A stretch of DNA of 33,495 nucleotides from IMG/VR virus record IMGVR_UViG_3300035187_003564, positions 1-33,495 of that record; one strand, 5' to 3'. The position numbers and the translations under genes are program-made. Position 1 is the stretch's first letter; each line of letters begins with the position of its first letter. Positions 3,524 through 27,804 of the stretch are shown one piece after another. This DNA comes from a virus. Lineage: Duplodnaviria > Caudoviricetes. The notes beneath the pieces are model-generated. The model had not been told where the DNA came from. It made no database searches and saw only the letters and a program-made list of their open reading frames with translations.

Positions 3524-3529
3524 TTGACA
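3524..3529 (+). promoter_or_regulatory. TTGACA late-gene motif, 15 nt before the terS ATG (3545)
   Basis: One of ten copies at a near-fixed distance from start codons. Confidence 0.65.
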
Positions 3530-3544
3530 GGTTGGTGGCTAGCT

Positions 3545-4147
3545 ATGACCGCCAGTGATCTAGCCAAGGAGTGGGAATGCAGCCGGCAGGCCGTGGCCAA
3601 GTGGGTGGCTAAGGGCATGCCGTTGACCAGCATGGAGGAGGCCAGCGCATGGAGATCTGCAAATTCTCAGAGGGCGCCTAGATGTAGGGTCGTCCAAGCT
3701 GCTGCGGCTTACACGGACCCGGCCGGGCCGGTGAGCCTAGAGACGGCTGTACCAGGGGAAACGCCGGAAGTGACAGAAGTAAGGGAGCGATCCAACCGAG
3801 CAAAGGTTGCGGAGCGTGAAGCCATGAAACTTTTGGATCAAGCCAAGGAGGCCAAAGACGTTCACGGGATCCGGCTGGCTTTGGACAAGGTAATAACGAC
3901 CCAAGAGCGGGCCCGGGATGCGGCAGATGAGCTGTCCAAGGCCCGAGCGGTTGCCGGGATTATGATGACAGTTACCCAGCACACCCAAGTGGTGGAGCGG
4001 TTGGCCGCAGAATTTCAGCGCGGCCTAGAGGCGCTGGTCAACAAGGGCAGCCGGCTTGTCGGGAAAAGCGCCGAGGAGATCCATGATATTATGCGCGAGG
4101 AAACTGGTCGTACTTATGAGGCCATAAAGGCCCGCATGATTGCATGA
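3545..4147 (+). CDS. terS: Terminase small subunit (Nu1-like)
   Basis: N-terminal HTH MTASDLAKEWECSRQAVAKWVAKGMP, coiled-coil C-terminus, ATGA overlap with terL; the longer ORF call from 3242 merely reads through the repeat array. Confidence 0.8.
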   Translation: MTASDLAKEWECSRQAVAKWVAKGMPLTSMEEASAWRSANSQRAPRCRVVQAAAAYTDPAGPVSLETAVPGETPEVTEVRERSNRAKVAEREAMKLLDQAKEAKDVHGIRLALDKVITTQERARDAADELSKARAVAGIMMTVTQHTQVVERLAAEFQRGLEALVNKGSRLVGKSAEEIHDIMREETGRTYEAIKARMIA

Positions 4148-5937
4148 CCATTACGTCATCATCACAAGTCCATGGGGCAGGGGCGGCTTTTAAGTTTCTT
4201 CGCCCCGCGGGGATGGATTCAGTGAGCCGGTGGGCGGAGCAAAGCATTTGGTTTTCTGAGCGCTACAGTCCTAGCAAGCCAGGCAAGGTCAGCTTGGACT
4301 CCATGCCCTATCTGCGCGAGGTGCTGGATAGCGCCACGGCTCCGGGCGTGCATGAGCTGACGCTATGTTTTGCGGTCCAGTGCGGTAAAAGCACGGCCCT
4401 GCAGCTCATGCTGGCCCACCGACTGACCAACAGGGCGACGCCCTGCATGGTGGTCCTGCCGTCGCTCAAGCTGGCACGCTCCATCAGCGCTGACCGATGG
4501 ATGGAATTGGTCCAGAGCAACCCGTGCCTTAGCCGGCTTTGCCCGGACAATGACGATGAGATGAAGCTGGACGAGCAGAGATTTCGATCTGGCACGGTTT
4601 GGTGGGTGGGCGCAGGCAGCGAGAGCAATCTTTCCAGCCGCAGTGTCGGCATGAGTATCGCCGACGAGATCGACAAGTTTCCAGACTGGAACACCAAGGA
4701 GGCCGCTCCGCTTCAGCTAATCGGCGCCCGGATGGAATCTTTCCCGCACTGGCTTTATGTTCAGGCGTCCACCCCGACGATTGACCAGGGGGTCAACATC
4801 TGGACAGAATTTCAGCGCGGTGACCAGCGCTACTACATGGTTGCATGCCGCGAGTGCCATCATCAGTTCAACCTGGAGTGGGAGGGCATTAAGTGGGACG
4901 AGTCCTCTTTTGAGGCAGATTCTGAGACGTGGAATTTTGAAAAGCTAAAGGCCACGGCCCATTACGAATGTCCGGGCTGCCGCCGGCAAATCCCTTTTAG
5001 CGAGCGCAATGAGATGATGCGGCAGGGCAAGTGGAAGGCCTCAGCCCAAGGCGAGCCGGGGCGCCGCAGCTATCACCTCAACGCGCTCTACAGCCCGCAC
5101 AAGACCTGGGGCGAGCTGGCTGTCATGTTTATCCAAGACAAGGAAAGCATCCGCGGGCTGCACCATTTTGTGAACAGCTATCTGGCCAAGCCATGGACTC
5201 CGGCCGCGGCCACGGTCAAGCCAAGCGCCGTCGAGGACGTTATCAAGGCCAGCCCGGAGTATCTGCTGGGCGAGTGCCCGATGGATCCGGACGGGCTAAT
5301 GATGGCGGTGGACGTTCAGCAGACGGAGCTTTGGTACACAATCCGGGCCTACGGCAAAAACGCAGGGAAGCCATGGAGCGCGCTAGTGGACTACGGCCAG
5401 CTAATAGGCTGGGACGCAGTCCTGCAAAAGTTTGGGCAAAAGTATCCGGTGCGCGGCAAGGAGGGCGAAGGCCGAAGCTGCTTGGGCGGGTTTGTGGATT
5501 CTGGTTACGCGGCCCGGAGGACCGGAGGTGTGTACGAGTTTGTGATCAGGGCGGCCGGAAAGTTTTGGGCCAGCAAGGGACGTGCAGCCAGTGCCGGGAT
5601 GCGGGCCAGCGTGGTAAAGCAGGTCGTCGAGCACCTGGGCCGGACTCTGCCTTTGGTCCAGTACGACGATAATGTTTTCAAACACACGCTTTACATCAAC
5701 AAAATCAAGGAGCGTACCGGGGCGGACTGGTGGCTGCCGCGCAATCTTGGCCGCGACTACATCAGCCAGCTGACGAATGAACGGCTGGTGGAGCGCAAGC
5801 TGCGCTATGGGCAGAGAGAGCTGACGTGGGAGGTGGTGGGCGCGAACCACTTGGGGGATTGCGAGAAGCTGGTGCTGGTGTTTTTAGAGCACGAACAAAA
5901 CCGGCCGCATGAGGCGGCCGCTAAATTGACAGCATGA
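4144..5937 (+). CDS. terL: Terminase large subunit, lambda GpA family
   Basis: Walker A AVQCGKST, Walker B IADEIDKF, ASTPT, GDQRYYMVACxxC, SYHLNALYSP, VDVQ, VDSGY, NHLGDC. Confidence 0.95.
   Translation: MTITSSSQVHGAGAAFKFLRPAGMDSVSRWAEQSIWFSERYSPSKPGKVSLDSMPYLREVLDSATAPGVHELTLCFAVQCGKSTALQLMLAHRLTNRATPCMVVLPSLKLARSISADRWMELVQSNPCLSRLCPDNDDEMKLDEQRFRSGTVWWVGAGSESNLSSRSVGMSIADEIDKFPDWNTKEAAPLQLIGARMESFPHWLYVQASTPTIDQGVNIWTEFQRGDQRYYMVACRECHHQFNLEWEGIKWDESSFEADSETWNFEKLKATAHYECPGCRRQIPFSERNEMMRQGKWKASAQGEPGRRSYHLNALYSPHKTWGELAVMFIQDKESIRGLHHFVNSYLAKPWTPAAATVKPSAVEDVIKASPEYLLGECPMDPDGLMMAVDVQQTELWYTIRAYGKNAGKPWSALVDYGQLIGWDAVLQKFGQKYPVRGKEGEGRSCLGGFVDSGYAARRTGGVYEFVIRAAGKFWASKGRAASAGMRASVVKQVVEHLGRTLPLVQYDDNVFKHTLYINKIKERTGADWWLPRNLGRDYISQLTNERLVERKLRYGQRELTWEVVGANHLGDCEKLVLVFLEHEQNRPHEAAAKLTA
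5926..5931 (+). promoter_or_regulatory. TTGACA late-gene motif, 13 nt before GTG 5945
   Basis: Repeated motif at a near-fixed distance from start codons. Confidence 0.6.
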
Positions 5938-5944
5938 AGGGCGC

Positions 5945-6265
5945 GTGGAGCGTGGGCTCATCTTTTCCCTTTGGATCCAGGCATCGAAAGACCCTGTGGC
6001 CCTCCGCCTTGCCTTGGAGGCTCTTGCGGCCGGGCAGGCCAACACTTTCACCAACGGGGGCAAGGTAATGGTCAGCGCATCCGTGGCCGGCAAATCGTTC
6101 AGCTACCAGCTGCAGCCCGGATTTAATCCCGCCGGCGTTGCCCAGCTAGCGCTTAACTGCTGGAAATCCGTGAAGGGTTTTACCACGTCCACTGAGGTTG
6201 AGGATTTTCTGACCAAATCCACCGGCTCGGTCTCCTATCCGTCCTACCCGTCCGAGGTTTTCTAA
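5945..6265 (+). CDS. Putative head completion protein (gpW position)
   Basis: Small ORF between terL and portal with a beta-hairpin-like SASVAGKSFSY segment, as in lambda gene order. Confidence 0.55.
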   Translation: MERGLIFSLWIQASKDPVALRLALEALAAGQANTFTNGGKVMVSASVAGKSFSYQLQPGFNPAGVAQLALNCWKSVKGFTTSTEVEDFLTKSTGSVSYPSYPSEVF

Positions 6266-6266
6266 G

Positions 6267-7881: not shown

Positions 7882-7887
7882 TTGACA
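7882..7887 (+). promoter_or_regulatory. TTGACA late-gene motif, 14 nt before ATG 7902
   Basis: Intergenic; no SD between the motif and the start codon. Confidence 0.7.
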
Positions 7888-7901
7888 CGCCCCGCCAGCA
7901 C

Positions 7902-8876
7902 ATGGCCGAAAAGAAATTTAAGGGCATATCCGTCATCACTGCTGGCCCCGCTCTTGGCCACGGCATGGTCATCGACGCGGAGACTCTTTCCCAGGTTGTC
8001 GAAAAAGGGAACGAGGCAGGACAGGTCAAGGTCCTGTCGGATCACTCGTCCTCCGTCTCCAACATCATCGGCTATCTGGAAAACTTTGGGCTGGATGGCG
8101 GCCGCGTCCGCGCCGACCTGACTCTTTTTGAAAGCCATGACGGCTTTCAGTATTTCAGCGAGCTGATCACCACGCTTCCTGGTCAGATCGGCTTTTCCAT
8201 CAGCTTTAGCGGCGTGCCCCGGGAGGCGGCCGACGGCACCCAGCTGGCCACCGTGCAGACGCTCTTTTCCGTGGATCTTGTGCTGACTCCGGCCGCAAAC
8301 CCCACCGGGGTTTTCCATGCGCGGGTTGACAGCAAGCAAAACGCCGTGACCAAAACATCACAGGTTGAAGAAACCAAGCTAGAGACGCCCGCCACGGAAG
8401 CGGCGCCCGTAGCCCCGGCGGCCCCGGCGGCAGAGCCCGCCAAACTGGCCGAGCCCACCCTCTCCGACATCAACGCCAAGCTGGACGCCATCATGGCCAT
8501 GCTGCAGGCCGATGTCGTTGAGGACGTGGTCGAGGAGCCCATGACCGGCAAGCCCGAGGAAAGCAAAATGGAAGCCGCCGTGGAGGCATCTCCCGTGGCC
8601 GAGGAACCCAAGGCCGAGCCCGTCCAGGAGACCGTGGCCGCGGAAGCCAAGATCGAGGAGATTAAGGCCGAAGCTCCGGCATCCAACGAGGCCGCCGCTC
8701 TCAAGGCCGAGCTGACCACCCTCAAGATTGATCTGGAAGCCTCGCGTGGCATCAAGCCGCTCGAAGTTTCCGCTGAACAGAATTTCTCGCGTTCCGACCT
8801 GCTTTCGCAGTTCAACGCGGAAAAGGATCCCCGCCGCGCCGCGGAGATCTTCAAGAAAATCAAACTGGCGCGATAA
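7902..8876 (+). CDS. Prohead protease fused to scaffolding domain
   Basis: Protease-like motifs SDH, GFSISF, SVDLVLTPAAN, then an acidic Ala/Glu/Pro-rich coiled-coil; lies between portal and capsid genes. Confidence 0.8.
   Translation: MAEKKFKGISVITAGPALGHGMVIDAETLSQVVEKGNEAGQVKVLSDHSSSVSNIIGYLENFGLDGGRVRADLTLFESHDGFQYFSELITTLPGQIGFSISFSGVPREAADGTQLATVQTLFSVDLVLTPAANPTGVFHARVDSKQNAVTKTSQVEETKLETPATEAAPVAPAAPAAEPAKLAEPTLSDINAKLDAIMAMLQADVVEDVVEEPMTGKPEESKMEAAVEASPVAEEPKAEPVQETVAAEAKIEEIKAEAPASNEAAALKAELTTLKIDLEASRGIKPLEVSAEQNFSRSDLLSQFNAEKDPRRAAEIFKKIKLAR
8326..8331 (+). promoter_or_regulatory. TTGACA late-gene motif, 14 nt before the internal in-frame GTG 8346
   Basis: Sits at the protease/scaffold domain boundary. 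Confidence 0.6.
8346..8876 (+). CDS. Nested in-frame scaffolding protein (internal start)
   Basis: GTG 8346 is in frame with 7902 (offset 444) and has its own TTGACA-N14 motif; analogous to lambda Nu3 inside gene C. Confidence 0.55.
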   Translation: MTKTSQVEETKLETPATEAAPVAPAAPAAEPAKLAEPTLSDINAKLDAIMAMLQADVVEDVVEEPMTGKPEESKMEAAVEASPVAEEPKAEPVQETVAAEAKIEEIKAEAPASNEAAALKAELTTLKIDLEASRGIKPLEVSAEQNFSRSDLLSQFNAEKDPRRAAEIFKKIKLAR

Positions 8877-9776: not shown

Positions 9777-9795
9777 GTAATTAGACCAACTGGTG

Positions 9796-9830
9796 GGCCG
9801 GCCGCATCGGGGGGTGCGGCCGGCCTTCCT
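9796..9830 (+). terminator. GC-rich hairpin after the capsid gene (weak terminator or mRNA stabiliser)
   Basis: GGCCGGCCGCA-N8-TGCGGCCGGCC (9796-9825) followed only by TTCCT. Confidence 0.6.
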
Positions 9831-9840
9831 CCTAAAGAAA

Positions 9841-11976
9841 ATGAAGCACCCCCCTCTTGTTTCGATCGCCCTCATCGCCGGCCCCGGCGAGGGGGCGATC
9901 TTGCGTAGACTCATCGAATCCGCCCGCGGCCTGTGGGACGAGGTCGTCGTGGTGGCGGCCGTCGGCAAAAACAGCTCGGACGATCTGCGCCAATCGCTCC
10001 AGGACGCGGCCGGAGAGGCCGGCGTGTTTGCGGAGTATCACAACGCCCCGGAGAACGCCGAGTGGCCTCACATCGACAATTTCGCCGCCGCCAGAAATCA
10101 GGCGTTCAGCCTAGCCAAGGGCAAGTTTGTCCTGTGGGCGGACTGCGACGACGTCTTTGAGCCCGGCCAAGCGGCCCTGCACCGTGCCCAGATTGAGGCG
10201 AGGGAAGCCGGCAAAGAGGAGTGGGATCTGCTGGTCACCATCTATGACGTGCAAAACAGCGGCATGCGCAACAACCGCCGGGAGCGGATTTTCCGCCGGA
10301 TGCCGGACGGCAAGCTCTCCGCCTATTGGGAGCGACAGATCCACGAGCGGGTCAAGCCCGTGGAGGGTGCCAAGATTGGCCTGGCCAACCACCTGCGCAT
10401 CCTGCACGCGCCCGCAGGGCCGAAGGTCACCTCCGCCGAGCGCAACAAGCGGATCATCGCCAGCCGGCTGCAGGGCATCGGCATGGAATGGTACTACCTG
10501 GCGCAGGAGCATTTTCTAAAAAACAACTATCAGGAAGCCATCGGTCCGTGCCTGCTGGCACTGGAACACGCCGACGTGGGCGCCACGGAAAAATACCAGC
10601 TTCACGTGGAGGCATCCATGATGCTGGCCGAGCGCAACAAGCGGCTGGAGCACCTTGGGAAAGCCATCACGCTTTCCCCGATGCGCAGGGAGGCGCACGG
10701 CCTGCTGGCCACGGACCGCATGGATCACGGGGATTTTGCCACGGCCTACCACATTTTGAAACAGGTGGACGTCATGCCGTCCACGCAGGATTGGAACCAG
10801 GAGAACCGCTGGTATAAGCACCTACCGCGGCAGCTGATGGCGCAGTGTCTGCGGGCGCTGGGGCAGCACGACGACGCCAAGGCGTTGGTGCGGGACGGCT
10901 TCCGCGGAGCCTGGGGACGGATCACCGTCATCCACGCCGGAGAGCCGGATGACTGCCTAAAATCCATGGCGCTCTATACGGACTGCGCGGACGCCTCCAA
11001 CGGCATCCAGCACCTGCTGCTCACTCAGAAGGGCCACAAAATTGCGGACCGGCTGCACATTGTGCAGAGCGCCGAGGAAAGCATCGCCGAGGCGCTGGGC
11101 GACGTGGTGCTGATGGTGAAAGCCAAGGATGCTCCGCTGCCCGGCCTGCGATGGGACGCGGCCTTGTTGGAAGAGGGAACCGTTCCGTCGGGGGCGGAGC
11201 AGCTGCCCAGTCCTGTCGACAAGAAAAGCCGGGTCGTCATCGGCCTAACCACCACGCCGAAGCGGATCCACACCGTCTTGCCCACCATCCAGAGCTTTTT
11301 GGCTCAGTCCATGCCGGCGGATCAAATTGTGCTTTCCGTGGCTGAAAAGCTGGCCCGCACCGGTGAACGATTCCCGGAGATCCCGGCCGAGCTGCAAAAA
11401 CTGGCGGACGACGGGAAGATCACCATTTACCGCAGCCGCGATCACGGCCCGGCGACCAAGTTCGTTGGGGCGGCCTGGGCGGCGGACGAGGCCGGGGCCC
11501 AGGACGATTTCGTCATCTGGTGCGATGACGACATCCTGTACAGCCCGCGGATGGTGCAGACGTTGGTGGAGAATTGCCCAGACAAGGCGGCCATGGGCCT
11601 GTGCGGCTTTTTTATGACCGGGCCCAAGGGTTACGCCATCGCACCCGACCACCTCGGCCACGCGGAGATTCTGGAGGGCTTTGGGGCGATCGCTTGCCGG
11701 CTGAAGGACATGCCCGATCTGGGCCAGTTCCCGTCCTTCACGGCCAAGGAGTTTGCCCAGCTGGACGAAAAGGGCCGGGCGCGTTTCATGGCGGATGATT
11801 TTGTCATGTCCCACGCCCTGCGGGAAAAGGGGACGCGGACATTGGTCTGCGCCACGCCGGACTACAACCGCACCAACGGCATCCGGATCCGCCCAGAAGG
11901 GCTGGGCGAGGATGCGGTTCAAAACAACAAGGGCACGGGCGGAAACCTTGCCGCCTACGCGCTGCTTAAGGCATGA
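9841..11976 (+). CDS. Multidomain glycosyltransferase: GT2 + TPR + second GT-A domain
   Basis: NFAAARNQAF...VLWADCDD...RERIFRR...QIHE (GT2 with DxD); TPR-like helices; C-terminal LTTTPKRI...DHGPATKF...WCDDDILY. Confidence 0.85.
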   Translation: MKHPPLVSIALIAGPGEGAILRRLIESARGLWDEVVVVAAVGKNSSDDLRQSLQDAAGEAGVFAEYHNAPENAEWPHIDNFAAARNQAFSLAKGKFVLWADCDDVFEPGQAALHRAQIEAREAGKEEWDLLVTIYDVQNSGMRNNRRERIFRRMPDGKLSAYWERQIHERVKPVEGAKIGLANHLRILHAPAGPKVTSAERNKRIIASRLQGIGMEWYYLAQEHFLKNNYQEAIGPCLLALEHADVGATEKYQLHVEASMMLAERNKRLEHLGKAITLSPMRREAHGLLATDRMDHGDFATAYHILKQVDVMPSTQDWNQENRWYKHLPRQLMAQCLRALGQHDDAKALVRDGFRGAWGRITVIHAGEPDDCLKSMALYTDCADASNGIQHLLLTQKGHKIADRLHIVQSAEESIAEALGDVVLMVKAKDAPLPGLRWDAALLEEGTVPSGAEQLPSPVDKKSRVVIGLTTTPKRIHTVLPTIQSFLAQSMPADQIVLSVAEKLARTGERFPEIPAELQKLADDGKITIYRSRDHGPATKFVGAAWAADEAGAQDDFVIWCDDDILYSPRMVQTLVENCPDKAAMGLCGFFMTGPKGYAIAPDHLGHAEILEGFGAIACRLKDMPDLGQFPSFTAKEFAQLDEKGRARFMADDFVMSHALREKGTRTLVCATPDYNRTNGIRIRPEGLGEDAVQNNKGTGGNLAAYALLKA

Positions 11977-12647
11977 AAAAAACCCTGACGATCAGCGGCC
12001 ACAGGCGGCCGGACTATTTCCAGCGCGTGCTGTCCGCGCTCTCCTTTTGCGATGGCGTCAGCGAGTACGCCGTCACTGCCGTGCTGGATCCCAGCGAGTG
12101 GACCGACCAGCTGGCCGATATCGCCCGTGGCCACGGCATGGCCGTGCATATTCCGGGAAAGCACCTTGGCTGCGGGGCGGCCATCCGGCACTGCTTGGCG
12201 CTGGGCTTTGAGGCGTCTGACTACCACATCCATCTGGAGGACGACACCGTCCCCAGCCCGGACGCTTTGCGTTGGTTTGAGTGGGCCGGCCGTCAAGCCA
12301 GTCCCATGACCCTGACCATTTCCGGCTACAACCAGCACGCCGGAGATGCCGAGGCCAACACGGCCGGCTGGCGTCATTGGTTCACCCCGTGGGGCTGGGC
12401 CACGTGGCGGGACTATTGGGAAAAATATCTTTCGCCCTCCTGGGACGACTCTTTCTGGGACGGCGGGGTACAGCGCATCCGCGACAATTTGGGCATGGGG
12501 GAGATGTTCCCGCGCGTCAGCCGGATCCAGAACATCGGCGCCACCCGTGGCGCCTTTTGCCCATCAGAAGATTTTCACCGGAAAAATCAGCACGCCACCC
12601 GCGTGGCTGGGCCGGAGGACAAAACAGAAAGGTGGATCCTCGCATGA
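11973..12647 (+). CDS. Glycosyltransferase, GT-A fold (GnT-I/GT13-like)
   Basis: RRPDYFQRVLSAL, HLEDDTVPSPD, FTPWGWATW, WD, FPRVSRIQNIG. Confidence 0.75.
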   Translation: MKKTLTISGHRRPDYFQRVLSALSFCDGVSEYAVTAVLDPSEWTDQLADIARGHGMAVHIPGKHLGCGAAIRHCLALGFEASDYHIHLEDDTVPSPDALRWFEWAGRQASPMTLTISGYNQHAGDAEANTAGWRHWFTPWGWATWRDYWEKYLSPSWDDSFWDGGVQRIRDNLGMGEMFPRVSRIQNIGATRGAFCPSEDFHRKNQHATRVAGPEDKTERWILA

Positions 12648-14185
12648 ACTACGCATTTTTAATCGCCTACCGGGCGCGCCCGCCCCAGGAGTTTAGAAAA
12701 CTTGAGCTGGAGGCGCTGATCGAAAACATCCGCGCCGTCATGGCCAAAAACCCGCGCCACACCTACAAGATCTGGGTCGGCGAACAGGACGACGACAAAA
12801 AGTTCAACCGCGGCTGGCTGCTCAACTCCATTTTCAACGAGGCGGCAAGGGAGGACGAAAACGCCTGCTTCGTTCACGTAAACACGGACTACCAGCTTCC
12901 CGTGGCCGAGCTTCCCGGCGAGCTGGAGGAGATGCCGGAAGGCTTTCTGGATCTGCATGGATACCCGCTGGCCTTGGGCGCGTTTTGCGCGTTTTCGGCC
13001 AAGGCGTACCGCGCCTGCAACGGATTTCCAAACGACCTGTGGGGCTGGGGCGGGGACGACTGGGCGATCTGGAAACGGATCGAGCTGGCCGGCCTCAAGG
13101 TGGATCGTCCAGGGCACCTCTACAACCGCTGGATCCTGGAGGGCAAGGAGCACGTCCGCGACGAAAGCAACAACGCCGAAAACATCACCAAGGCCCTGGA
13201 CGTCACCGGCGCCAGCATGATGCAGAACGGTGCCAACACCGCCGCCTACTGGATCAGCCGATCCTCCAGCCCGGGCCTGCAGGGGGACGTGCGCTGGCGC
13301 AGCTTTCAGCAGCCCAAGCACTTTCTGGTCACCGGCGGCGCGGGCTTTATCGGCAGCCACTTGGTCGACGAGCTGTGCCGGACGTGGAACCGCGTGGAGG
13401 TGATCGACAGCCTGCGGTCCGGTTTCCGGCAGCAGGTCAACAACCGGGCCAGCCTGATTGAGCGCGACATCCGCAGCTACGAATCCATCTGCCAGCTGTT
13501 TGACGGCAAGGACGGCGTCTTTCACCTGGCGGCCATCGCCCGGACTCCGTGGTGCATTGAGGATCCCATTCTTTGCTATCAGACCAACGTGATGGGCACG
13601 CTGCACGTGTGCGAGGCCGCCCGGCAGGCCAAGGTGCCCCGCGTCGTGCTGTCCAGCTCCAACGTGGTCTATGCCTTTATGACACCCTATCGCACCGGCA
13701 AGGAGGCGGGCGAGGGGATCGGGACCACGTATGCCGACATGTACGGGCAAAGCGTCATTAGTTTGCGCTACAGCAATGTCTACGGCCCGCGCCAGAGCGA
13801 GACCGGCCCCAGCCCAAACGTCTTTGCGGCTTTGCGAAAAAGCCGGCGGGACGAGGGCCGGTTGGTCATTACCGGAGACGGCGAGCAGACGAGGGATTTC
13901 ACCCACGTGTCTGACATTGTGCAGGGAAACCTGCAAGCCATACGGTCCCGCCATTGCGGGGTGGTGGATCTTTGCACCGGAAAGAACTGGAGCCTGAATC
14001 AGGTGGCCAAGTGGTTTGGCGGCGAGATCCGCTACACCGACGAGCGTCCCGGGGACGTGAAGCACATCGTGCAAAACCCTGAGGATGCCCGGCTGATTCT
14101 AGGCTGGGAGGCCAAGGTGAATCTGGCCGACGGCATCCGGGATGTGCTGCCGGAAGTATCTTTGACACAGGCACCCACGGCGTGA
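12644..14185 (+). CDS. Fusion of a GT7 (beta-1,4-galactosyltransferase-like) domain and an NAD-dependent NDP-sugar epimerase/dehydratase
   Basis: EQ...FNRGWLLN and NGFPNDLWGWGGDD (GT7); VTGGAGFIGSHL, YxxxK (YRTGK), LRYSNVYGPRQ, GDGEQTRDF (extended SDR); ATGA overlap at 12644. Confidence 0.88.
   Translation: MNYAFLIAYRARPPQEFRKLELEALIENIRAVMAKNPRHTYKIWVGEQDDDKKFNRGWLLNSIFNEAAREDENACFVHVNTDYQLPVAELPGELEEMPEGFLDLHGYPLALGAFCAFSAKAYRACNGFPNDLWGWGGDDWAIWKRIELAGLKVDRPGHLYNRWILEGKEHVRDESNNAENITKALDVTGASMMQNGANTAAYWISRSSSPGLQGDVRWRSFQQPKHFLVTGGAGFIGSHLVDELCRTWNRVEVIDSLRSGFRQQVNNRASLIERDIRSYESICQLFDGKDGVFHLAAIARTPWCIEDPILCYQTNVMGTLHVCEAARQAKVPRVVLSSSNVVYAFMTPYRTGKEAGEGIGTTYADMYGQSVISLRYSNVYGPRQSETGPSPNVFAALRKSRRDEGRLVITGDGEQTRDFTHVSDIVQGNLQAIRSRHCGVVDLCTGKNWSLNQVAKWFGGEIRYTDERPGDVKHIVQNPEDARLILGWEAKVNLADGIRDVLPEVSLTQAPTA
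14162..14167 (+). promoter_or_regulatory. TTGACA late-gene motif, 14 nt before GTG 14182
   Basis: Repeated motif. Confidence 0.7.
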
Positions 14186-14493
14186 CCGAGCTGGACAGCC
14201 TGATGACCGCCGGCCTTTCCGACATGATCGCCGGGGCCGGATCCGTGACCGCCTCCATCGGAGGCACCACGGTCACCGGCATGTATACGCCCGGCGAAAA
14301 GAGCGGGGAGCTGGGCATGGGCGGACTCGTCACGCCCGCCCCGGCAGAGTTTGTTTGCCCGGCCACGGCCGCCAGCGCTCCGTCTCTGTTGGGCACGATC
14401 ACCGTGGCCAACGCCACCAAGCGCGTGATGAGCACCCAGGAGGACGGCGGGCTGATCACCATCACGCTGGGCAATCCCGAGGACGTGCGATGA
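14182..14493 (+). CDS. Putative head-tail joining protein (gpFII-like)
   Basis: Size, beta-rich sequence and position at the start of the neck/tail module. Confidence 0.55.
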   Translation: MTELDSLMTAGLSDMIAGAGSVTASIGGTTVTGMYTPGEKSGELGMGGLVTPAPAEFVCPATAASAPSLLGTITVANATKRVMSTQEDGGLITITLGNPEDVR

Positions 14494-14909
14494 GCCTGCG
14501 CCTTTCCTTTGAATCCAAGCTGGCGGACTACCTTACAGCCGTCAGTCCGTCCAAGCCGTCCGCCCTGCAAGTGCAGGCCGCTCATAAAATCACGGAGCTG
14601 GAGATGCCCGCGCTCGTCATCCACGCGGAAAGCGCGGAGACCATGGAGGAGGGGATCCAGACCAATACCCGCAAGATCACCGTGCAGGCCAGCGTGATGA
14701 CGCCCATCCAAGAGACGGCCACCGTGGCCAGCCACACCGCCGCTTTTCTATGGGCGGAGGCCCGGCTCAAGGATCGGGCCGCCATGATCTCCGGCATCAC
14801 CGCCGGGGTCACCATCCTGGGCAGCCACATCCAGGCCGAGCGCACCGAGACCAACGAGCGGGCCATGGCCGACAGCCTGACCGCCATCTTTTACGTAGAC
14901 CCGTCGTGA
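14490..14909 (+). CDS. Putative tail terminator/completion protein
   Basis: ATGA overlap; ELEMPALVIHAES pattern typical of gpU-like proteins; position. Confidence 0.5.
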   Translation: MSLRLSFESKLADYLTAVSPSKPSALQVQAAHKITELEMPALVIHAESAETMEEGIQTNTRKITVQASVMTPIQETATVASHTAAFLWAEARLKDRAAMISGITAGVTILGSHIQAERTETNERAMADSLTAIFYVDPS

Positions 14910-15355
14910 TCGGGGAAATCACGGAGCACTTTTTTGGCTCCGTGACGGAGCTGTCCTGGTACGAGGACGGCCGCGGCAAGCTGATGGAAATCCTGCGGGG
15001 TGAAGGGGTGGATTTTGGGCAGGCCTACGTCACCACCTGCCGCCCCGGGGTGGTGAAGGCATGGCACCATCACGAGCGCCAAACCGACAGGATGATCTGC
15101 CTCCATGGCGCCCTGCAGATCGGTTTGGTTGATTTGCGGTCAGAAAAGACCGCCACCGTTTATTCCAGCCCGCACGCGCCTCGCCTAGTGACCATCCGCC
15201 CGGGCATCTGGCACGGCTTTTCGGCGGTGGGGGCGGAGGAGGCGATTGTCCTAAACCTGCCCGATCGCGCCTACGACAGAAAAAATCCAGATGAGCAGCG
15301 CCGGCCGGCGCATGATCCGGCGATCCCGTACCGCTGGGGCGTGCAGGACGGTTGA
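14906..15355 (+). CDS. rmlC: dTDP-4-dehydrorhamnose 3,5-epimerase family cupin
   Basis: EDGRGKLME, QAYVTTCRPGVVKAWHHH, LVDLR, IRPGIWHGF, DPAIPYRW; GTGA overlap. Confidence 0.85.
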   Translation: MIGEITEHFFGSVTELSWYEDGRGKLMEILRGEGVDFGQAYVTTCRPGVVKAWHHHERQTDRMICLHGALQIGLVDLRSEKTATVYSSPHAPRLVTIRPGIWHGFSAVGAEEAIVLNLPDRAYDRKNPDEQRRPAHDPAIPYRWGVQDG

Positions 15356-15357
15356 CA
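15352..15357 (+). promoter_or_regulatory. TTGACA late-gene motif, 16 nt before ATG 15374 (C-GTA at the 14-nt offset)
   Basis: Repeated motif. Confidence 0.65.
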
Positions 15358-15373
15358 GTATTGATTCGGGCGT

Positions 15374-15655
15374 ATGGCTTACACCTACGGCACACCCGCC
15401 AGTACCACTCTTTCAGAAACAGTCGCCACGTCCTTCGAGCGGCTCTTTGTCCAAGGCGCCGATGGCGCCGTCAAGGCCGGCTTTAAGAAATACGCTCAGG
15501 GCGAGAAGCGCGTGGAGACCTACAGCAGCACGCTCCCCACGCTGGCCAGCGGCACAATGGCCAACGGGGCCGTGGTGGGTTTTGAGTATCGCGAAACCAA
15601 CACGGACGAGCCCCGCGTGACGGAAACGCAGCTGTCCTGGAGCGCCATTCCGTAA
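15374..15655 (+). CDS. Small structural protein, putative minimal tail tube protein
   Basis: Thr/Ser/Gly-rich beta protein in the tail tube position. Confidence 0.45.
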   Translation: MAYTYGTPASTTLSETVATSFERLFVQGADGAVKAGFKKYAQGEKRVETYSSTLPTLASGTMANGAVVGFEYRETNTDEPRVTETQLSWSAIP

Positions 15656-15983: not shown

Positions 15984-16562
15984 GTGGCCCTGGATAAACT
16001 ATTTTCCGAGAGCTTGGTCAACCGGGACGACCACGTCGTCCTAGGCGTCCGCCTGCAGCCCTTGTCTCTCTGGCACGCCACGCTCCTGGAGCTGATTGAA
16101 AGCCCGCTGTGGCACGGCAAAAGCGGCGTCACCATGACCGATCTGCGCCTGGCCGTTTCGATCTGCTCCGGCAAATGGCCGGAGTACCGGATCCCGCAGG
16201 GATGGCGTCTCATGCTGTGGGCGTTTCGCTCCCGGCGCTGCCGGCTGGCCGTGGAGGCCGCCAAGTTTTCCGCCTACATCCGGGATTTTCACGCCCCGCC
16301 GATGCTGTGGGAAAAGGAGCAGAAGGAGCGGCCGAAGGGGCCGGAGCTGTGCCCGTTGCCCCAACCGCTGGACGTGGTGGCGTGGCTGGTGCGGCACGGC
16401 TTTGGCGAGGACAGAAGCTGGACGATGCCGATCGGACTGGCGCACTGGTACTACGTGGCCATCGCCAAGCAGCGGGGCGCGGAGGTGGAGCTGGTCAGTC
16501 CGGGCGAGCAGGTGGCGATTGAGAAGGTCAAAGCCCGCCGCGGCATGCAGAGGGCTGGGTAA
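15984..16562 (+). CDS. Putative tail assembly chaperone
   Basis: Between tube-like genes and the tape measure; C-terminal WTMPIGLAHWY motif resembles gpT-type chaperone ends. Confidence 0.5.
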   Translation: MALDKLFSESLVNRDDHVVLGVRLQPLSLWHATLLELIESPLWHGKSGVTMTDLRLAVSICSGKWPEYRIPQGWRLMLWAFRSRRCRLAVEAAKFSAYIRDFHAPPMLWEKEQKERPKGPELCPLPQPLDVVAWLVRHGFGEDRSWTMPIGLAHWYYVAIAKQRGAEVELVSPGEQVAIEKVKARRGMQRAG

Positions 16563-17383
16563 TGGCCTTAAAAATATCCGTTGATGATAGGAAGTTTCAG
16601 CGCGCCCTAAAAAGATTTTACGCCGCCAGCGAAAAAGACCGAGCGGCTATTCTTAAGGCGCAAGGCAGGTTGATTTGCGTCAATTTGGCCTTTCAGACCG
16701 CTCCGTTTGGTAAAGACAAAGCCGCCAAGCTAAGAGGCGAGGGAAGCGCCCAAGCGGACATCAACCGCGTGTACAAGGGGCCGGCCATCGTGCACCGAAA
16801 TATCTGGAACTCCGGGCAGGGGAAAGACCTGCAAAACATTGAGGACAGCCGCCAAGCCGCGGCCGCTTTTGTGCGGCTGGTGCGCGATGGCAAGACGGCA
16901 GAGGCAGAGAAACTTTTGCAGGATCTGCGGATTGATAAGCACAAGGAGGCCAAGGTGGCAAAATTCGATGCGGGCGTGGCCGTAAAGGCAGCCCGTCATG
17001 GCCCACGAAAAAAAGTGAGCCGCAATCAATTCGTCCAGCTGGTACCCACGGACTACAACTCGTTGAAGAAATTTGCCAAAAAGGTGCAACAGCGCGTGGG
17101 CTTGGCCAAGGCCGGATGGGCCAGTGCCGCAAAATGGCTGGGCGGCATGCGGGATATTCCGGCCTGGGTGCAGCGCCATACGGATGGGCGGGCTCTCAGC
17201 AGCCTGGACGATCAAAGCCAAAGAGGTTCACGGCCTTATATCAAGATCACCAATATGGTTCCCTACGTAAGCCGCTGTATTTCGTCAGGGCAAATCCAGC
17301 GCGCCCTTGACATCCAAAGGCAAAAAATGATTAAGGCAATTAACATTGCCACCTCCAAAGCGGCGAAGGCCAACGGGTTATGA
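16562..17383 (+). CDS. Basic neck/tail completion protein (HK97 gp10-like)
   Basis: N-terminal ISVDDRKFQRALKRF and C-terminal ITNMVPYVS; highly basic. Confidence 0.5.
   Translation: MALKISVDDRKFQRALKRFYAASEKDRAAILKAQGRLICVNLAFQTAPFGKDKAAKLRGEGSAQADINRVYKGPAIVHRNIWNSGQGKDLQNIEDSRQAAAAFVRLVRDGKTAEAEKLLQDLRIDKHKEAKVAKFDAGVAVKAARHGPRKKVSRNQFVQLVPTDYNSLKKFAKKVQQRVGLAKAGWASAAKWLGGMRDIPAWVQRHTDGRALSSLDDQSQRGSRPYIKITNMVPYVSRCISSGQIQRALDIQRQKMIKAINIATSKAAKANGL
17307..17312 (+). promoter_or_regulatory. TTGACA late-gene motif, 14 nt before the internal in-frame ATG 17327
   Basis: ATG 17327 opens an 18-codon frame that ends in the ATGA overlap with the tape measure start. Confidence 0.5.
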
Positions 17384-18516: not shown

Positions 18517-19200
18517 ATGCCTTTTACCTACGAGCAGCCAGGCCGGACAGAAACGCAGGATCAGAGCGGCAAAAAAACCCTAACGATCACCTACGTTGGG
18601 GATGCGGTTGCGACCGCTCCGACAGTTTCAAACGCTTCTCTTTATTCCAGGACGGTCGTCACGGCTGAGGCTGGAATGATCAGAACGACCTTTCAGTATA
18701 ACCTCACGCAAGCTTCGGGTGCACTAGGCGGAGCCAGTGCCGGTGGCAACATTGCTGGCATAGAAATCGTCGGAAGCCTTCGGACTGTTCCTCTGCAGGC
18801 GCATCCCAGATACAAAGACCTGACCGCCGAGGAGCAGAAAGAGGTAAGGGATTTTGTGCAAAATCCAATTTCTGGGTCAAAAGCATTGCCTGCATCTTGG
18901 TCAAATTTCGCCGGAGTCGACATGATGGCCGAGCTGGCCACAAAGCTTCTTGAGGGGCAGGAAAGCTACTATGAGCCTTCTGTAATTTTAAGGAAAACTA
19001 CTTTTTCCTCGACCATTCCCTCTGGAGATAAGCTTGGCAAAATTTCAGATCCGGATGTTGATTATGATTCTGCTCCAGAGGATTCAGACTGGCTTCTGGT
19101 CAATGTATCGGCACGTGGTCAGTCTGGAGCCTATACAATTACTCAGGAGTATGAGCTTTCTGGCGAGGGTGGCTGGGACGAGGATATTTACAGCCCATAG
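18517..19200 (+). CDS. Putative distal tail/baseplate protein
   Basis: Immediately after the tape measure; beta-rich; ends with GGWDEDIYS. Confidence 0.5.
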   Translation: MPFTYEQPGRTETQDQSGKKTLTITYVGDAVATAPTVSNASLYSRTVVTAEAGMIRTTFQYNLTQASGALGGASAGGNIAGIEIVGSLRTVPLQAHPRYKDLTAEEQKEVRDFVQNPISGSKALPASWSNFAGVDMMAELATKLLEGQESYYEPSVILRKTTFSSTIPSGDKLGKISDPDVDYDSAPEDSDWLLVNVSARGQSGAYTITQEYELSGEGGWDEDIYSP

Positions 19201-21448: not shown

Positions 21449-22500
21449 TCTGCCTGACCACATTTTTTACTCGCAGCTGGTGCTATTCCGTGCCCAGCTG
21501 GGCCGAGCACTGCGCCACCGCCATGCGTGGCGAGCCCGGCCACCTTATTCTGGCCACAGACGATTCGATTGAATGCGCCCAGATGGTGGCGCAAGTGGCA
21601 CCAAAATTCCCATCCTTGATCCTGCACCATATCGTAATCGGCCAAGCGGACGACCGTCAAAAAGCCTACCAAGACGAGGCCCAGTTTATTATCGCCCGGC
21701 TGCAGCAAGCTGCCTTTGCCAAGGCCCGGGATTTGGATTGCGACCAATGCTGGTCCGTGGAAAGCGACGTACTGGTGCCGCCCAACGCCCTGCTTGTGCT
21801 GCGCGACACTCTGGGTTTCGACGCCGGCTATTATTCCGTCGCTATGGTCACCTATCCGAACGGCCAGTTTTTGGGTGGCCGAGGTACCGCCCAGCACCCC
21901 ATTGCCGAGGATTTTACTCACGAGGAACGACAGATCCCAGAGGCTATGCAAAAGGAAATTGACGCCAGGGACAAGCGCCTCAAGGACCTGTCCAAAAAAA
22001 AAGAGCGCCCGAGCGAGGAGGAGCTGAAGCAATGGGGTGGGCTGGACAAGCGGATCCGGGAGTGCCCGCCCAAGGGCAACATTTTTGAGCTGCAGGCCAA
22101 GGGCTGGCGGAAAAGGGGATGGCTGGAAAGCGCCTACCCAGCCATCGGCCGCGGAGCCATCCTGCCCACGGACTGGGTGGGACTGGGCTGCACCCTGCTA
22201 AACAAAAAGGCCCTCTCTTTGGCCACTTTCGAGGGCTACGACCTTAAGGGCACTCAGGACCTTTTTCTTTGCTGGAACCGATGGCACCCGCACGGCCTGC
22301 GGATGGCAGTAATCCCACACGTCGTCTGCTCCCACGTGAAGCGGAAGGTGGATCAAGACGGACGTCGCACCGATGAGATTGAGGTGCACGAGGCGTACCA
22401 TGAAATGGGCGGGGAGTACGACGGGCACCTGCGCTGGCGGTTGAAAAAGTTTTACGATTTTAACACCGCCCCGTCTTTGACACGCCCTCCTTCGCCGTAA
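21445..22500 (+). CDS. Glycosyltransferase-like protein (GT-A fold) with a charged helical insertion
   Basis: WSVESDVLVPPNAL (DxD-like), DWVGLGCTLL, QDLFLC, VIPHVVCSHV; GTGA overlap. Confidence 0.65.
   Translation: MICLTTFFTRSWCYSVPSWAEHCATAMRGEPGHLILATDDSIECAQMVAQVAPKFPSLILHHIVIGQADDRQKAYQDEAQFIIARLQQAAFAKARDLDCDQCWSVESDVLVPPNALLVLRDTLGFDAGYYSVAMVTYPNGQFLGGRGTAQHPIAEDFTHEERQIPEAMQKEIDARDKRLKDLSKKKERPSEEELKQWGGLDKRIRECPPKGNIFELQAKGWRKRGWLESAYPAIGRGAILPTDWVGLGCTLLNKKALSLATFEGYDLKGTQDLFLCWNRWHPHGLRMAVIPHVVCSHVKRKVDQDGRRTDEIEVHEAYHEMGGEYDGHLRWRLKKFYDFNTAPSLTRPPSP
22477..22482 (+). promoter_or_regulatory. TTGACA late-gene motif, 22 nt before ATG 22505 (C-GTA at the 14-nt offset)
   Basis: Repeated motif. 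Confidence 0.55.
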
Positions 22501-22504
22501 CCCC

Positions 22505-22846
22505 ATGCCCGCACCCACCTACAACATCACGATCGAGCAGGGGGCGGACTGGACCCGGGACCTTTTCCTCACCACCGCCACCCAGGGGACGATCGACGTC
22601 TCCGGCCGGACGTTTAAGGCCGAGATCCGTCAGTACCCCAGCGGCACCGTGGCCACCGCCATCGCCTGCAGCGTCGTCTCGGCCCCTGGCGGTCAGGTGC
22701 GGATGAGCGTGACCAGCGCGGCCGGCCTGCTTGTGCCCACCGCCGGGGCGAAGTGGGATCTGTTTATGGTGACCAGCGCCGGAGTCAGCACCCGGCTATT
22801 GCAGGGATCCGTGGCTCTCAGCCCCAGGATCACGGTGACATCCTAA
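22505..22846 (+). CDS. Ig-like virion adaptor protein (BppU N-terminal-like)
   Basis: YNITIEQGADW...FKAEIR...WDLFM...RLLQGSV...PRIT pattern. Confidence 0.6.
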   Translation: MPAPTYNITIEQGADWTRDLFLTTATQGTIDVSGRTFKAEIRQYPSGTVATAIACSVVSAPGGQVRMSVTSAAGLLVPTAGAKWDLFMVTSAGVSTRLLQGSVALSPRITVTS

Positions 22847-23974: not shown

Positions 23975-23977
23975 GCC

Positions 23978-25032: not shown

Positions 25033-25035
25033 CCT

Positions 25036-25397: not shown

Positions 25398-25401
25398 ATT
25401 T

Positions 25402-25476
25402 TTTTACCGCCGAGACGCGGAGACGCTGAGGGTTACTTCAGAAAATCTCTGCGCCCTCTGCGCCTCAGCGGTAAAA
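25402..25476. repeat. Imperfect 75-bp palindrome (REP-like element or terminator)
   Basis: TTTTACCGCCGAGACGCGGAGACGCTGAG...CTCTGCGCCCTCTGCGCCTCAGCGGTAAAA. Confidence 0.7.
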
Positions 25477-25493
25477 CCCTCTCTTTCCGGTGT

Positions 25494-25499
25494 TTGACA
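25494..25499 (+). promoter_or_regulatory. TTGACA late-gene motif, 14 nt before the holin ATG 25514
   Basis: Repeated motif. Confidence 0.7.
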
Positions 25500-25513
25500 C
25501 TTGGCCGCTAGGT

Positions 25514-25678
25514 ATGGACCTAATCACCCACCTTGCATCGAACTGGCAGTCTTATTTGGGCGTCGTCACCGCCGTGCTGGGTGCGGCCATTGCCGTCGCC
25601 ACCCTGATCCCCGGGGACGAGCCGGAGCGGACGCTCCAAAAGATCGTCGATTTCATTTCGCAAATCTCCCGCAAATAA
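25514..25678 (+). CDS. Putative holin
   Basis: 54 aa, one TM helix, LIPGDEPE turn and basic tail; first gene of the lysis cassette. Confidence 0.55.
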   Translation: MDLITHLASNWQSYLGVVTAVLGAAIAVATLIPGDEPERTLQKIVDFISQISRK

Positions 25679-25687
25679 GGGGAGGGG

Positions 25688-25864
25688 ATGATCACCGGTG
25701 CCCTTACCGTCCTCGGCACCCTCTTGGCGCTGGTTCTCTGGTGGCTCCAGAACCGCGGGAAAAACCGGCACGAATATCGGGACGCCATCATTGAGGCCGA
25801 GCGGCGCAAGCGGGATCAGAAGATTGATTCTTGGTGGACTAAGCGGCCTCCTGCTGGCTCTTAG
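25688..25864 (+). CDS. Putative inner-membrane spanin (58 aa, not in the ORF track)
   Basis: GGAGG SD; MITGALTVLGTLLALVLWWL TM followed by a charged helix; overlaps a lipoprotein gene. Confidence 0.6.
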   Translation: MITGALTVLGTLLALVLWWLQNRGKNRHEYRDAIIEAERRKRDQKIDSWWTKRPPAGS

Positions 25865-26078
25865 CCTTGCCGGCTGTGCCACGGTCACGCCGATTGCGGA
25901 CGGCCCGCCTCCGCGCCCGGAAACAATCGAGGCGCTCATCTACGAGTGGGACAAGATCGAAAGAAAAGAAGGCTCCGCTCCGGCCGCTTACCGCGACCAG
26001 TACGTCTCCGCGCTTAAGGCGCTATCTGCTAGCCTGGCTGAAACAGAGCGCTGGCGGCACCGGGCCGAAAGCAAATGA
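25824..26078 (+). CDS. Putative outer-membrane spanin lipoprotein
   Basis: Signal peptide with lipobox LAGC and a Pro-rich linker; TTG start inside the i-spanin gene (start uncertain). Confidence 0.65.
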   Translation: MILGGLSGLLLALSLAGCATVTPIADGPPPRPETIEALIYEWDKIERKEGSAPAAYRDQYVSALKALSASLAETERWRHRAESK

Positions 26079-26635
26079 CCTGGCGGCAGATTGTTGACCG
26101 CAGCGAGGGCCACATCGCCAAGCTGGCTCCGGGATTCCGGGAGCGGGTGGCCAAGTGGTATCAAGAGCTGACCGCTAAGCGGATCCCGGTGCTGATCTAC
26201 TGCTCAGTAAGGACACCGGCGGAACAGGATGAGCTCTACGCCCAGGGCCGGACTAGGAAGGGAACCAAGGTGACCAACGCCAAGGGCACGCCCGTGGCCC
26301 AGTCGTTCCACTGCTACGCCCGGGCGATCGATGCGGTGCCCTGCGCCAACACGGCCGCCGGTGGATACACCCCCAGCTGGGATGACGAAAAAACGTACCA
26401 GCTTCTGCGCAACTGCGCCGAAAAGTATGACCTCCGCTGGCTTTCGTTTGAGACTCCCCATTTCGAGGACGGTACTTTTAAAGACTGGCGGGCCTTGAGC
26501 CTGTCGAAGGGGGAGCACGACGGCCCCGGCACCCGGATCGCGGAAAAGAACCGGCAAAAGATGCAGGCCGAAAACAGCCCCGTGTCCAGCGGCAGTACGA
26601 AGCAGGTTCGTAAGGTAAGGATCCGCAAGCCATGA
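26075..26635 (+). CDS. Endolysin, peptidase M15 family (L-Ala-D-Glu peptidase-like)
   Basis: RTPAEQDELYAQGRT, VTNAKG, SFHCYARAID, ETPHFE. Confidence 0.9.
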   Translation: MTWRQIVDRSEGHIAKLAPGFRERVAKWYQELTAKRIPVLIYCSVRTPAEQDELYAQGRTRKGTKVTNAKGTPVAQSFHCYARAIDAVPCANTAAGGYTPSWDDEKTYQLLRNCAEKYDLRWLSFETPHFEDGTFKDWRALSLSKGEHDGPGTRIAEKNRQKMQAENSPVSSGSTKQVRKVRIRKP

Positions 26636-26970
26636 CGCACGGCGTTACACCCCCGATGTCCAAGGAGCATGAGCTGCACCTGGCCTCCATCATGGAGGCG
26701 TTCATCAAGGACTTTTCCAAGAAGTACCGCAAGGGGCAGGCGGAGCACGGAGGAGCCCTCTGGATGCGGCCGTGCTGGGCCGATGCGATCAGCGAGGTGC
26801 TGGATTTGGTATCGTATGTTTACACCCATAAGGTCCAGCTTTCCGTCATTGCCGATCTGGCGCTGAAGGGGGCGGAGGACAAGACCGTGGCTGCGGCGGA
26901 CGCAAGGGAGAGCTGCGTGAGGATACTGCAAGTGCTCCAAGGGCTTCCGGGTTACGAGGACAAAAAGTAA
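26632..26970 (+). CDS. All-alpha NTP pyrophosphohydrolase-like protein
   Basis: KYRKGQAEHGG...DAISEVLDLVSY resembles the MazG-like ExxD helix pattern. Confidence 0.4.
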   Translation: MTHGVTPPMSKEHELHLASIMEAFIKDFSKKYRKGQAEHGGALWMRPCWADAISEVLDLVSYVYTHKVQLSVIADLALKGAEDKTVAAADARESCVRILQVLQGLPGYEDKK

Positions 26971-26986
26971 GAAGGCTCCTAAGCCT

Positions 26987-26992
26987 TTGACA
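26987..26992 (+). promoter_or_regulatory. TTGACA late-gene motif, 14 nt before ATG 27007
   Basis: Intergenic; repeated motif. Confidence 0.7.
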
Positions 26993-27006
26993 CATACGGC
27001 GTAGCA

Positions 27007-27804
27007 ATGGCCCGCATTTTACTGGTCGTCAGTGACCTGCACTGTGGATCCGAGGTGGGGCTTATGCCGCCCGACACCACCGTCCGCACCGGGAACAAAA
27101 TCTCCTTTGGCGGGAACGTGCACCAGGAGTGGCTGTGGGCGTGCTGGACGGACCTACAGGCGCAGTTTGCCCGGATCCGCGGCAAGGATAAGTATGCCCT
27201 CCTGCTCAACGGGGACCTCACGGAAGGCATCCACCACAAATCTATCGAAAGCCTTACGCAATCCATCGAGGATCACGCCAATATGGCGATCGAGGCCGTG
27301 GGCGGTCTGGCGGCCAAGGCCCAAAAGACCTTCGTCACGCTGGGCACGGAGGTTCATACCGGCCTCATCGAGCACTACATCGCCAAAAAGATCGGGGCCG
27401 AGGGCAAGGGGGCAAAGGCCAAGTGGCTTTTCCGTATGGCCGGATGTCTGGTGGATGCCACCCACCACATCGGCGTGACCAGCCGCGCCTACTTGGAGGC
27501 GACCAGCCTTTCGATCACTATGGGCAACGCCCGCCTCAACAGCATGCGCTGTGGTCAGGAGCCGGCCCGGATCTACCTCCGCGGCCACCGGCACACCGGG
27601 GGCTGGTTCTCGGACGGGCAGGGGATGATCGGCGTCACCGGCGGATGGCAGTTTTTGACCCGCTACGGCCGGAAGGTCGTGCCGGACGCCATCCCCAGGC
27701 CCAGCGCCATGGTGCTGGACTGGCGACGTAAGCGGGACGGAGAGCTGCCGGAAGTGACGGAGATTGTGTTCACGCCCGATCAGGATGAAATCACCACAGT
27801 ATAA
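27007..27804 (+). CDS. Calcineurin-like metallophosphoesterase
   Basis: SDLHCG, NGD, GTEVH, HH, GHRH motifs. Confidence 0.8.
   Translation: MARILLVVSDLHCGSEVGLMPPDTTVRTGNKISFGGNVHQEWLWACWTDLQAQFARIRGKDKYALLLNGDLTEGIHHKSIESLTQSIEDHANMAIEAVGGLAAKAQKTFVTLGTEVHTGLIEHYIAKKIGAEGKGAKAKWLFRMAGCLVDATHHIGVTSRAYLEATSLSITMGNARLNSMRCGQEPARIYLRGHRHTGGWFSDGQGMIGVTGGWQFLTRYGRKVVPDAIPRPSAMVLDWRRKRDGELPEVTEIVFTPDQDEITTV

Follow-up and report, generated by a model that had tools for sequence, protein, structure and literature searches.

A candidate late promoter class with a TTGACA hexamer and no −10 element in phages of likely Verrucomicrobiota hosts

Results

TTGACA boxes before late-gene start codons

The window analyzed here, a stretch of 33,495 nucleotides that is the whole viral record IMGVR_UViG_3300035187_003564, carries a 140-nt end repeat and encodes a primase, a lambda-type terminase and portal, a capsid protein, a tape measure protein, an endolysin, and an integrase; the phage is temperate. 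In its late region, the hexamer TTGACA (hereafter the box) stands at a nearly constant distance, or gap, before start codons, and the last part of its early operon contains an ORF (open reading frame; 32406–32915, + strand) for an unnamed 169-aa helix-turn-helix (HTH) protein, our candidate late activator. An exhaustive scan of both strands found ten TTGACA on the + strand and none on the − strand, all of them located from the terminase small subunit gene to the gene after the lysis block. The gaps from hexamer to start codon are, in order, 15, 13, 14, 14, 14, 16, 14, 22, 14, and 14 nt, and a start codon lies at a gap of 13 to 16 nt for nine of the ten. The initial annotation of this DNA had listed the same ten positions and gaps, together with C-GTA at the 14-nt offset of the 15352 and 22477 sites, which is indeed present.

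All ten boxes can be assigned to a start codon on the + strand. The first (3524–3547, gap 15) precedes the ATG of the terminase small subunit (phrog_57), the first late gene, whose 200-aa ORF and gap are conserved in relatives. It is followed by a box (5926–5947, gap 13) before the GTG of a small gene preceding the portal gene, an orthologue of gp08 of the cultured phage P8625, and by one (7882–7904, gap 14) before the ATG of ORF 7902–8876, which is likely the prohead protease-scaffold gene by synteny, as it lies between portal and capsid. Another box (8326–8348, gap 14) is inside this ORF and precedes the in-frame GTG of the likely scaffold half; the counterpart ORF has such an internal in-frame start and box in all six genomes examined (G000–G005). 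Farther downstream, boxes precede the GTG of a head-tail attachment gene with a weak PF05354 match (14162–14184, gap 14) and the ATG of a 93-aa tail-region gene, with G at offset 14 (15352–15376, gap 16). The box at 17307–17383 (gap 14) lies inside ORF 16562–17383 and precedes an in-frame ATG that opens the last 18 codons of this ORF; their stop codon overlaps the tape measure ATG (17380). The box and the in-frame Met are conserved in G001–G005 despite CTT/ATT codon changes. The longest gap (22 nt; 22477–22507) belongs to a tail-fibre-assembly-like gene, and from offset 14 its leader reads GTAACCCC. The last two boxes precede the ATG of a 54-aa hydrophobic ORF, likely a holin, which heads the lysis block with the endolysin at 26075 (25494–25516, gap 14), and the ATG of a metallophosphoesterase-like gene (26987–27009, gap 14). 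This gene (27007–27804) follows the lysis block and has its own box; in G004 and G005, a different phosphoesterase-like gene takes its place, and that gene is boxed in G005. The earlier statement that every box precedes an in-frame start stands, but the boxes at 8326 and 17307 lie inside genes, and the ATG of the latter opens only 18 codons. Both internal boxes fit promoters as well.

The number of boxes is not above chance (10 versus 12.4 expected). Their placement was evaluated by the distance to start codons, as had been proposed: eight of the ten are followed, at a gap of 13 to 16 nt, by an ATG or GTG opening at least 50 codons, against a + strand background of 6.2% (P ~9e-9, with the gap range picked post hoc, after the data were inspected). 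TTGACA was the top-ranked hexamer for placement, and its 18 one-mismatch variants gave 7 of 209. On these two results, chance placement was rejected.

Conservation and signal content of the boxes

Of the 55 distinct TTGACA in 24 loci with related terminases, 53 had a start codon at a gap of 13 to 17 nt, and the remaining two were cut by locus ends; conservation of the spacing in relatives, suggested earlier as a check, was therefore observed. The flanks and spacers diverge freely in these relatives, whereas the hexamer and the gap are retained. A misplaced start codon was rejected as an explanation from the comparison of the terminase relatives. Over 247 distinct sites, the gap peaked at 13 nt (60 sites), followed by 14 (46), 15 (22), 16 (19), and 17 nt (9).

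A logo of 158 box sites showed only [T/G]TTGACA and a G-G-C bias ahead of the start codon; it contained neither a −10 element nor a Shine–Dalgarno (SD) word at a fixed distance, in agreement with the earlier remark that the gaps hold no clear SD. Offsets 0 to 8 past the hexamer carried no information, so there is no −10-like pause element directly downstream. As had also been pointed out, a −10 element at canonical spacing would fall in the coding sequence, and no TA...T signal was detected in the 158 sites. No second DNA motif was found in the pooled sites or in 12 genomes taken one by one.

Two arrangements on opposite strands were observed. In G005, two TTGACA stand back to back on opposite strands (19128–19153), each 14 to 15 nt before a start codon, and by its position the box appears to serve the opposite-strand gene too. 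Locus L141 has two facing TTGACA within one inverted repeat (~5691–5745).

A fixed point downstream of the hexamer

We then considered sites with distant start codons. Offset 14, an offset picked after a first look, was a purine in 32 of 38 de-duplicated long-gap sites (start codon 19 to 58 nt off; background 0.38, P 4.5e-9), a set that includes orthologous genes. In these long-gap sites, A accounted for 94 of 228 bases at offsets 12 to 17 versus 72 of 418 at offsets 0 to 10, G dropped in the leader, and the leader after offset 14 was A/C-rich; an SD-like word occurred in 4 of the 38 long leaders. In a change-point analysis of 27 sites, a point at hexamer+12 outperformed every point tied to the start codon (log-likelihood −999.9 versus −1019.6). 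Because the purine at offset 14 and the A/C-rich leader appear when the start codon is distant, the fixed point past the hexamer is likely the transcription start. The sequence pattern indicates that transcripts very probably start 13 to 15 bases past the hexamer, on or just before the start codon. Excerpts of a study on Akkermansia (PMC4782308) give 10% leaderless transcripts and transcription starting on YR (pyrimidine–purine).

One late gene in two promoter geometries

In P8625, several late genes are preceded by TTGACA, 17 nt, TAT..., and an ATG at gap 30, and one of the late genes with a gap-30 promoter is 46% identical to window ORF 5945. Among 39 P8625-terminase-related loci, TTGACA stood at gap 30 to 37 before the gp08 orthologue in 30, with an AT-rich stretch ~17 nt past the hexamer (judged by eye), and at gap 15 to 16 in five (L211–L215), compared with gap 13 in the window; the other four loci end short of this gene. 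One hexamer thus serves one gene in two geometries ~16 nt apart. Because the same late gene has TTGACA canonically spaced in P8625 and its relatives, the compact box is, by its position in the sequence, a −35 element. This positional homology is one of two independent lines that support the late-promoter reading put forward in the initial annotation; the other is the purine and the composition switch 12 to 14 nt past the hexamer at sites with distant start codons.

A quick portal tree with a midpoint root and long branches grouped the 14 canonical rows as a single clade (96), with which the compact G023, L211, L214, and L215 were united (100). Two changes account for all labels on the tree, including that of the cultured phage Moulinsart, which has neither layout and lacks the box (none of its seven late-strand sites falls at gap 12 to 17). 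In P8625 (L076), the spacers of the canonical late promoters at 5412, 10736, and 15558 contain GTATC, and past the −10 comes GATAC or AATAC; together these form an operator-like inverted repeat. A term search of the main text of the P8625 paper (PMC4642752) gave no mention of promoters.

The HTH protein as a candidate activator

The protein of ORF 32406–32915 was modeled as all-helical with an HTH (predicted local distance difference test score, pLDDT, 91), and 182 clusters match its family at E ≤ 0.001. No consistent Pfam or PHROG family was obtained for its 124 members, and none of them matched a Q family in Pfam or PHROGs. Fold searches of the model gave no PDB match at E ≤ 0.001 and a best Z of 5.7; AlpA, with Z 5.2 and a root-mean-square deviation of 5.6 over 86 aligned residues, was within the noise of helical folds. 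The hits included no clear match to a sigma fold, an absence that carries no weight. One family member, P0245, had no match among 50,697 phage records.

The family accompanies the boxes. Two motif scans gave 79 loci: in the 63 that encode the HTH family, 142 of 240 TTGACA stood at gap 12 to 17, versus 10 of 118 in the 16 chance-match loci. All 15 family records then chosen from among these, five with few local boxes and ten long ones, had 5 to 15 same-strand boxes, compared with 0 to 3 for reversed-pattern controls. The family was found in 20 of 20 box genomes (19 by blastp and G023 by profile), which makes it the most universal non-virion family; the neighboring early ORF, 32906–33495 (+ strand), which continues via the end repeat to position 183 and is the second-ranked candidate factor, was found in 17 of 20 by blastp. 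In G023, nothing lies between the HTH gene and the terminase small subunit gene. The profile matched all six of G000–G005, including G004, which was found via its attachment (att) site and has a divergent early region, and it had no match in P8625 or Moulinsart. Within the P8625 terminase set, the family occurred only in L211–L213, three of the five compact loci; L214 and L215 begin too near the terminase to show the HTH gene, and many canonical loci are short too. Two copies are present in G004 (29641–30195 and 33623–34096, both on the reverse strand) and also in G011, which has two portal genes.

A reverse test started from the box pattern and used the longer records, 31 of the 122 loci with this pattern; seven of the 31 are at least 90% complete. 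Among these seven, the family is present in the box-rich G026, G046, and G048 and, weakly, in G040; it is missing from the box-poor G038 and G042 and also from G031, which is considered below. A single incomplete record out of 24, G049, passed, and G035 has a divergent candidate. Of the box-rich fragments, coverage was examined in G029 and G030, which begin less than 1 kb before the terminase.

The recognition helix varies among family members (TRAAVSK, TKQAISK, TREAVRL, and KRSAVCA). Because the hexamer is invariant while this helix varies, the comparison of sequences favors a conserved host reader of the hexamer.

Genome context and host

The attP core (31235–31262, + strand) is a 28-nt match to the 3′ end of a host tRNA-Met gene and lies beside the integrase gene (29985–31145, − strand). 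The 26-nt core occurred in 37 metagenome contigs, 32 of which have a full tRNA-Met at the att site. Because a gene from one such contig has a Verrucomicrobia bacterium as its nearest named homologue (77% identity), the host likely belongs to Verrucomicrobiota. The tRNA-Met att core is shared by a second phage group of the G004 type (50% GC; L027, L040, L044, and L056). A 2.9-kb contig of the window's own phage group, L024, is in a metagenome-assembled genome titled Betaproteobacteria and is likely misbinned.

The host sample comprised 33 partly redundant metagenome contigs around tRNA-Met (337 kb), which represent one chromosomal region. None of its 11 distinct TTGACA had a start codon at gap 12 to 17, and a host-wide trait was rejected on this count from that one region. 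By eye, the promoter of the host tRNA-Met gene consists of TTGGCG, 17 nt, and TAGAA. Antisense TTGACA are depleted in phages (50 versus 159 expected in 24 compact genomes; 42 versus 48 in the P8625 clade), but this was not counted as support, since the host contigs are depleted too (9 versus 35) and G023 is not.

The switch region of the window (29411–29884) contains a divergent pair of DUF6364 ribbon-helix-helix-type genes, not a cI/Cro pair, and is kept in G001–G005. Divergent canonical promoters, TTGACT and TTGCCA (29620–29719, both strands), each lie 28 nt before the start codon of one of these genes and serve as an internal control for normal geometry; CGTAT..ATACG inverted repeats cover both. 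Three switch-region promoters of normal geometry had been reported: those at 29654 (TTGACT, − strand) and 29683 (TTGCCA) were confirmed with 28-nt gaps, but 29187 has no −35-like hexamer, and 28187 may have been intended. AGGAGG-type sites precede the early genes. The late strand at 9793–15355, between the capsid and head-tail genes, carries glycosyltransferase, nucleotide-sugar epimerase, and cupin-fold sugar-isomerase genes, which suggests virion or surface glycosylation.

Discussion

Proposed mechanism and its weak points

The initial annotation attributed the reading of the hexamer to a phage factor or a remodelled polymerase, and the present comparison supplies a candidate for that factor, the protein of ORF 32406–32915, which, judging from its distribution, is probably the switch. 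In our proposal, this HTH protein would remodel the host RNA polymerase so that sigma region 4 sits on the hexamer, right beside the opened DNA, as lambda Q imposes, and transcription would begin 13 to 15 bases past the hexamer. The spacing sum would be the hexamer, 1 bp, the 6-bp −10 position, and 6 to 7 bp, which gives 13 to 14 nt. Each module would receive its own mostly leaderless message; the internal boxes would allow the scaffold to be made apart from the protease and the tape measure to be translated via an 18-codon coupled leader, and lineages would shift between layouts with the hexamer unchanged. A remodelled host holoenzyme is favored because the hexamer is the exact sigma-A consensus, the HTH recognition helix varies, and layout shifts keep the hexamer. 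We put the odds that host sigma region 4, rather than a phage protein, reads the hexamer at about two to one, and we assign a rough probability of 0.45 to the compact late promoter in which the HTH protein remodels the host polymerase in this way.

Several observations weigh against this proposal. Its weak point is melting: the 158 sites have no −10-like sequence 1 bp past the hexamer and the gap is often GC-rich, whereas in the lambda Q complex sigma region 2 holds a −10-like site. The gaps spread over 13 to 18 nt, looser than sigma-70 spacers, and the purine signal bears the limits of its orthologous sites and its offset. Fold searches gave only a generic HTH likeness for the candidate activator, and the viral library returned uncharacterised proteins only. 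The co-occurrence of the family with the boxes amounts to two independent changes on the portal tree (the P8625 clade and Moulinsart), P8625 being the sole complete genome of its clade checked, and 13 of the 20 box genomes compared were selected through the HTH protein itself. G031, a complete genome with five pattern matches (3 of 8 precede the start of an ORF), has no family member, although it also has no proteins in common with the window. The members in G040 (E 5e-5) and G035 (E 3e-3) passed only weakly, within their own ORF sets.

Alternative explanations

The lack of a −10 element would be accounted for if the HTH protein itself read TTGACA and brought core polymerase to the same compact promoter as a minimal sigma-like factor, with its conserved C-terminal helix (K-S..A...Y......H-W-R) helping to open the DNA. 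The predicted HTH keeps T-R/K at the start of the recognition helix, aromatic residues are conserved after that helix, and no second motif for an activator turned up in pooled or individual genomes. However, recognition helices diverge strongly within the family, in contrast to the fixed hexamer, a new reader need not keep the exact sigma-A −35 consensus, and Sigma70_r4 was matched by 1 of 124 members (E 0.003), with no match to sigma region 4 (PF04545) in the window; we regard this explanation, the main rival, as unlikely. It is distinctly unlikely that the promoter is compact as proposed and the HTH gene merely hitch-hikes by descent, the switch being another phage protein, such as that of the ORF running from 32906 to 183, or a host factor. 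The small number of independent contrasts, the presence of the neighboring ORF in most box genomes, the absence of the family from G031, and the single chromosomal region in the host sample would all allow it. Hitch-hiking agrees less well with the universality of the family in box genomes, with its position directly before the terminase small subunit gene in G023, with the outcome of the reverse test, where four complete genomes selected by box carried the family, one of them weakly, and two box-poor ones did not, and with the absence of TTGACA at gap 12 to 17 from the host contigs sampled.

A role in RNA is the remaining explanation: UUGACA could be a translation-initiation signal, the non-SD alternative raised at the outset, or a site cut 13 to 15 nt downstream to make leaderless messages from a long late transcript. 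The boxes are strictly on the sense strand and tied to start codons, also within genes, and a processing site would yield the same purine and leader signature. Nonetheless, the box stands where the sister clade has a canonical −35 ahead of the same gene, it is the exact sigma-70 −35 consensus with one-mismatch variants inactive in placement, and the co-occurring HTH protein looks, from its model, like a DNA-binding protein. The translation signal in particular is weakened by start-codon distances of 13 to 58 nt and by the AGGAGG-type sites of the early genes. An action on RNA therefore appears very improbable.

Relation to known systems and significance

In the accepted view, initiation of the sigma-70 type requires a 16- to 18-bp spacer and, for melting, a −10 element. 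Here, the −35 TTGACA is exact at 10 of 10 sites, and the −10 element 16 to 18 nt on is absent. A canonical transcript would start ~29 to 30 nt past the hexamer, but the purine and leader signature points to offset 13 to 15. Phage proteins are known to repurpose sigma region 4 or to replace sigma for a new promoter class, as do AsiA-MotA and gp55 of T4; those T4 promoters keep the −10 core, whereas the compact box retains the −35 hexamer and does without a −10. The canonical leaderless sigma-A promoters of Verrucomicrobia and of phage P8625 share, gene by gene, the hexamer before orthologous late genes, with the start codon near the presumed start site, but they keep 17 nt and a TA-rich −10 (gap 29 to 37), and the compact form is ~16 nt shorter and lacks the −10. 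At lambda PR′, according to excerpts of PMC9388147, Q acts at a single site, on an elongation complex that has paused, and this site has a −10-like pause element together with a Q-binding element. The compact boxes instead number 5 to 15 per genome, are tied to start codons, and have no −10-like or second motif, and the HTH protein matches no Q family in Pfam or PHROGs.

The nearest layout in the literature searched, which yielded no described compact −35-only promoter, is that of the Thermus phage Lalka27a (bioRxiv 10.64898/2026.04.20.719267). The portions of this preprint considered describe a temperate phage with a tRNA att site and dense, mostly leaderless late promoters, whose host polymerase specificity is thought to be changed by a phage factor, as proposed here. 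By contrast, its late promoters have a TAGGGT −10 and C at −25, both absent from our logo, and a start 6 nt past the −10, and in that phage TTGACA serves early and middle promoters as their ordinary −35. Ordinary promoters are likewise the subject of the excerpts of PMC4331800. The role of the box, a phage late promoter, is familiar, and its architecture fits none of the classes compared.

The box layout is real and conserved, and comparison of these genomes points to a likely new class of promoter, for which a candidate activator has been named and can be tested. At somewhat better than even odds, we consider that Verrucomicrobia phages have a promoter class consisting of the −35 hexamer only (at about −19 to −14, with no −10), driven by a family of small phage proteins through a Q-like placement of sigma region 4 or as a minimal sigma, in which lineages flip between layouts by ~16 bases. 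With one 169-aa candidate named, the idea is testable with purified parts, and the P8625 promoters offer natural controls. If correct, a six-base promoter without a −10 would represent another route to the open complex, and the transient position of sigma region 4 in the lambda Q complex would become a mode of initiation. The box would also be useful in Verrucomicrobia as a very short promoter that is inducible and orthogonal, and its sequence would be a tag with which to find Verrucomicrobia phages and correct the start codons of their late genes.

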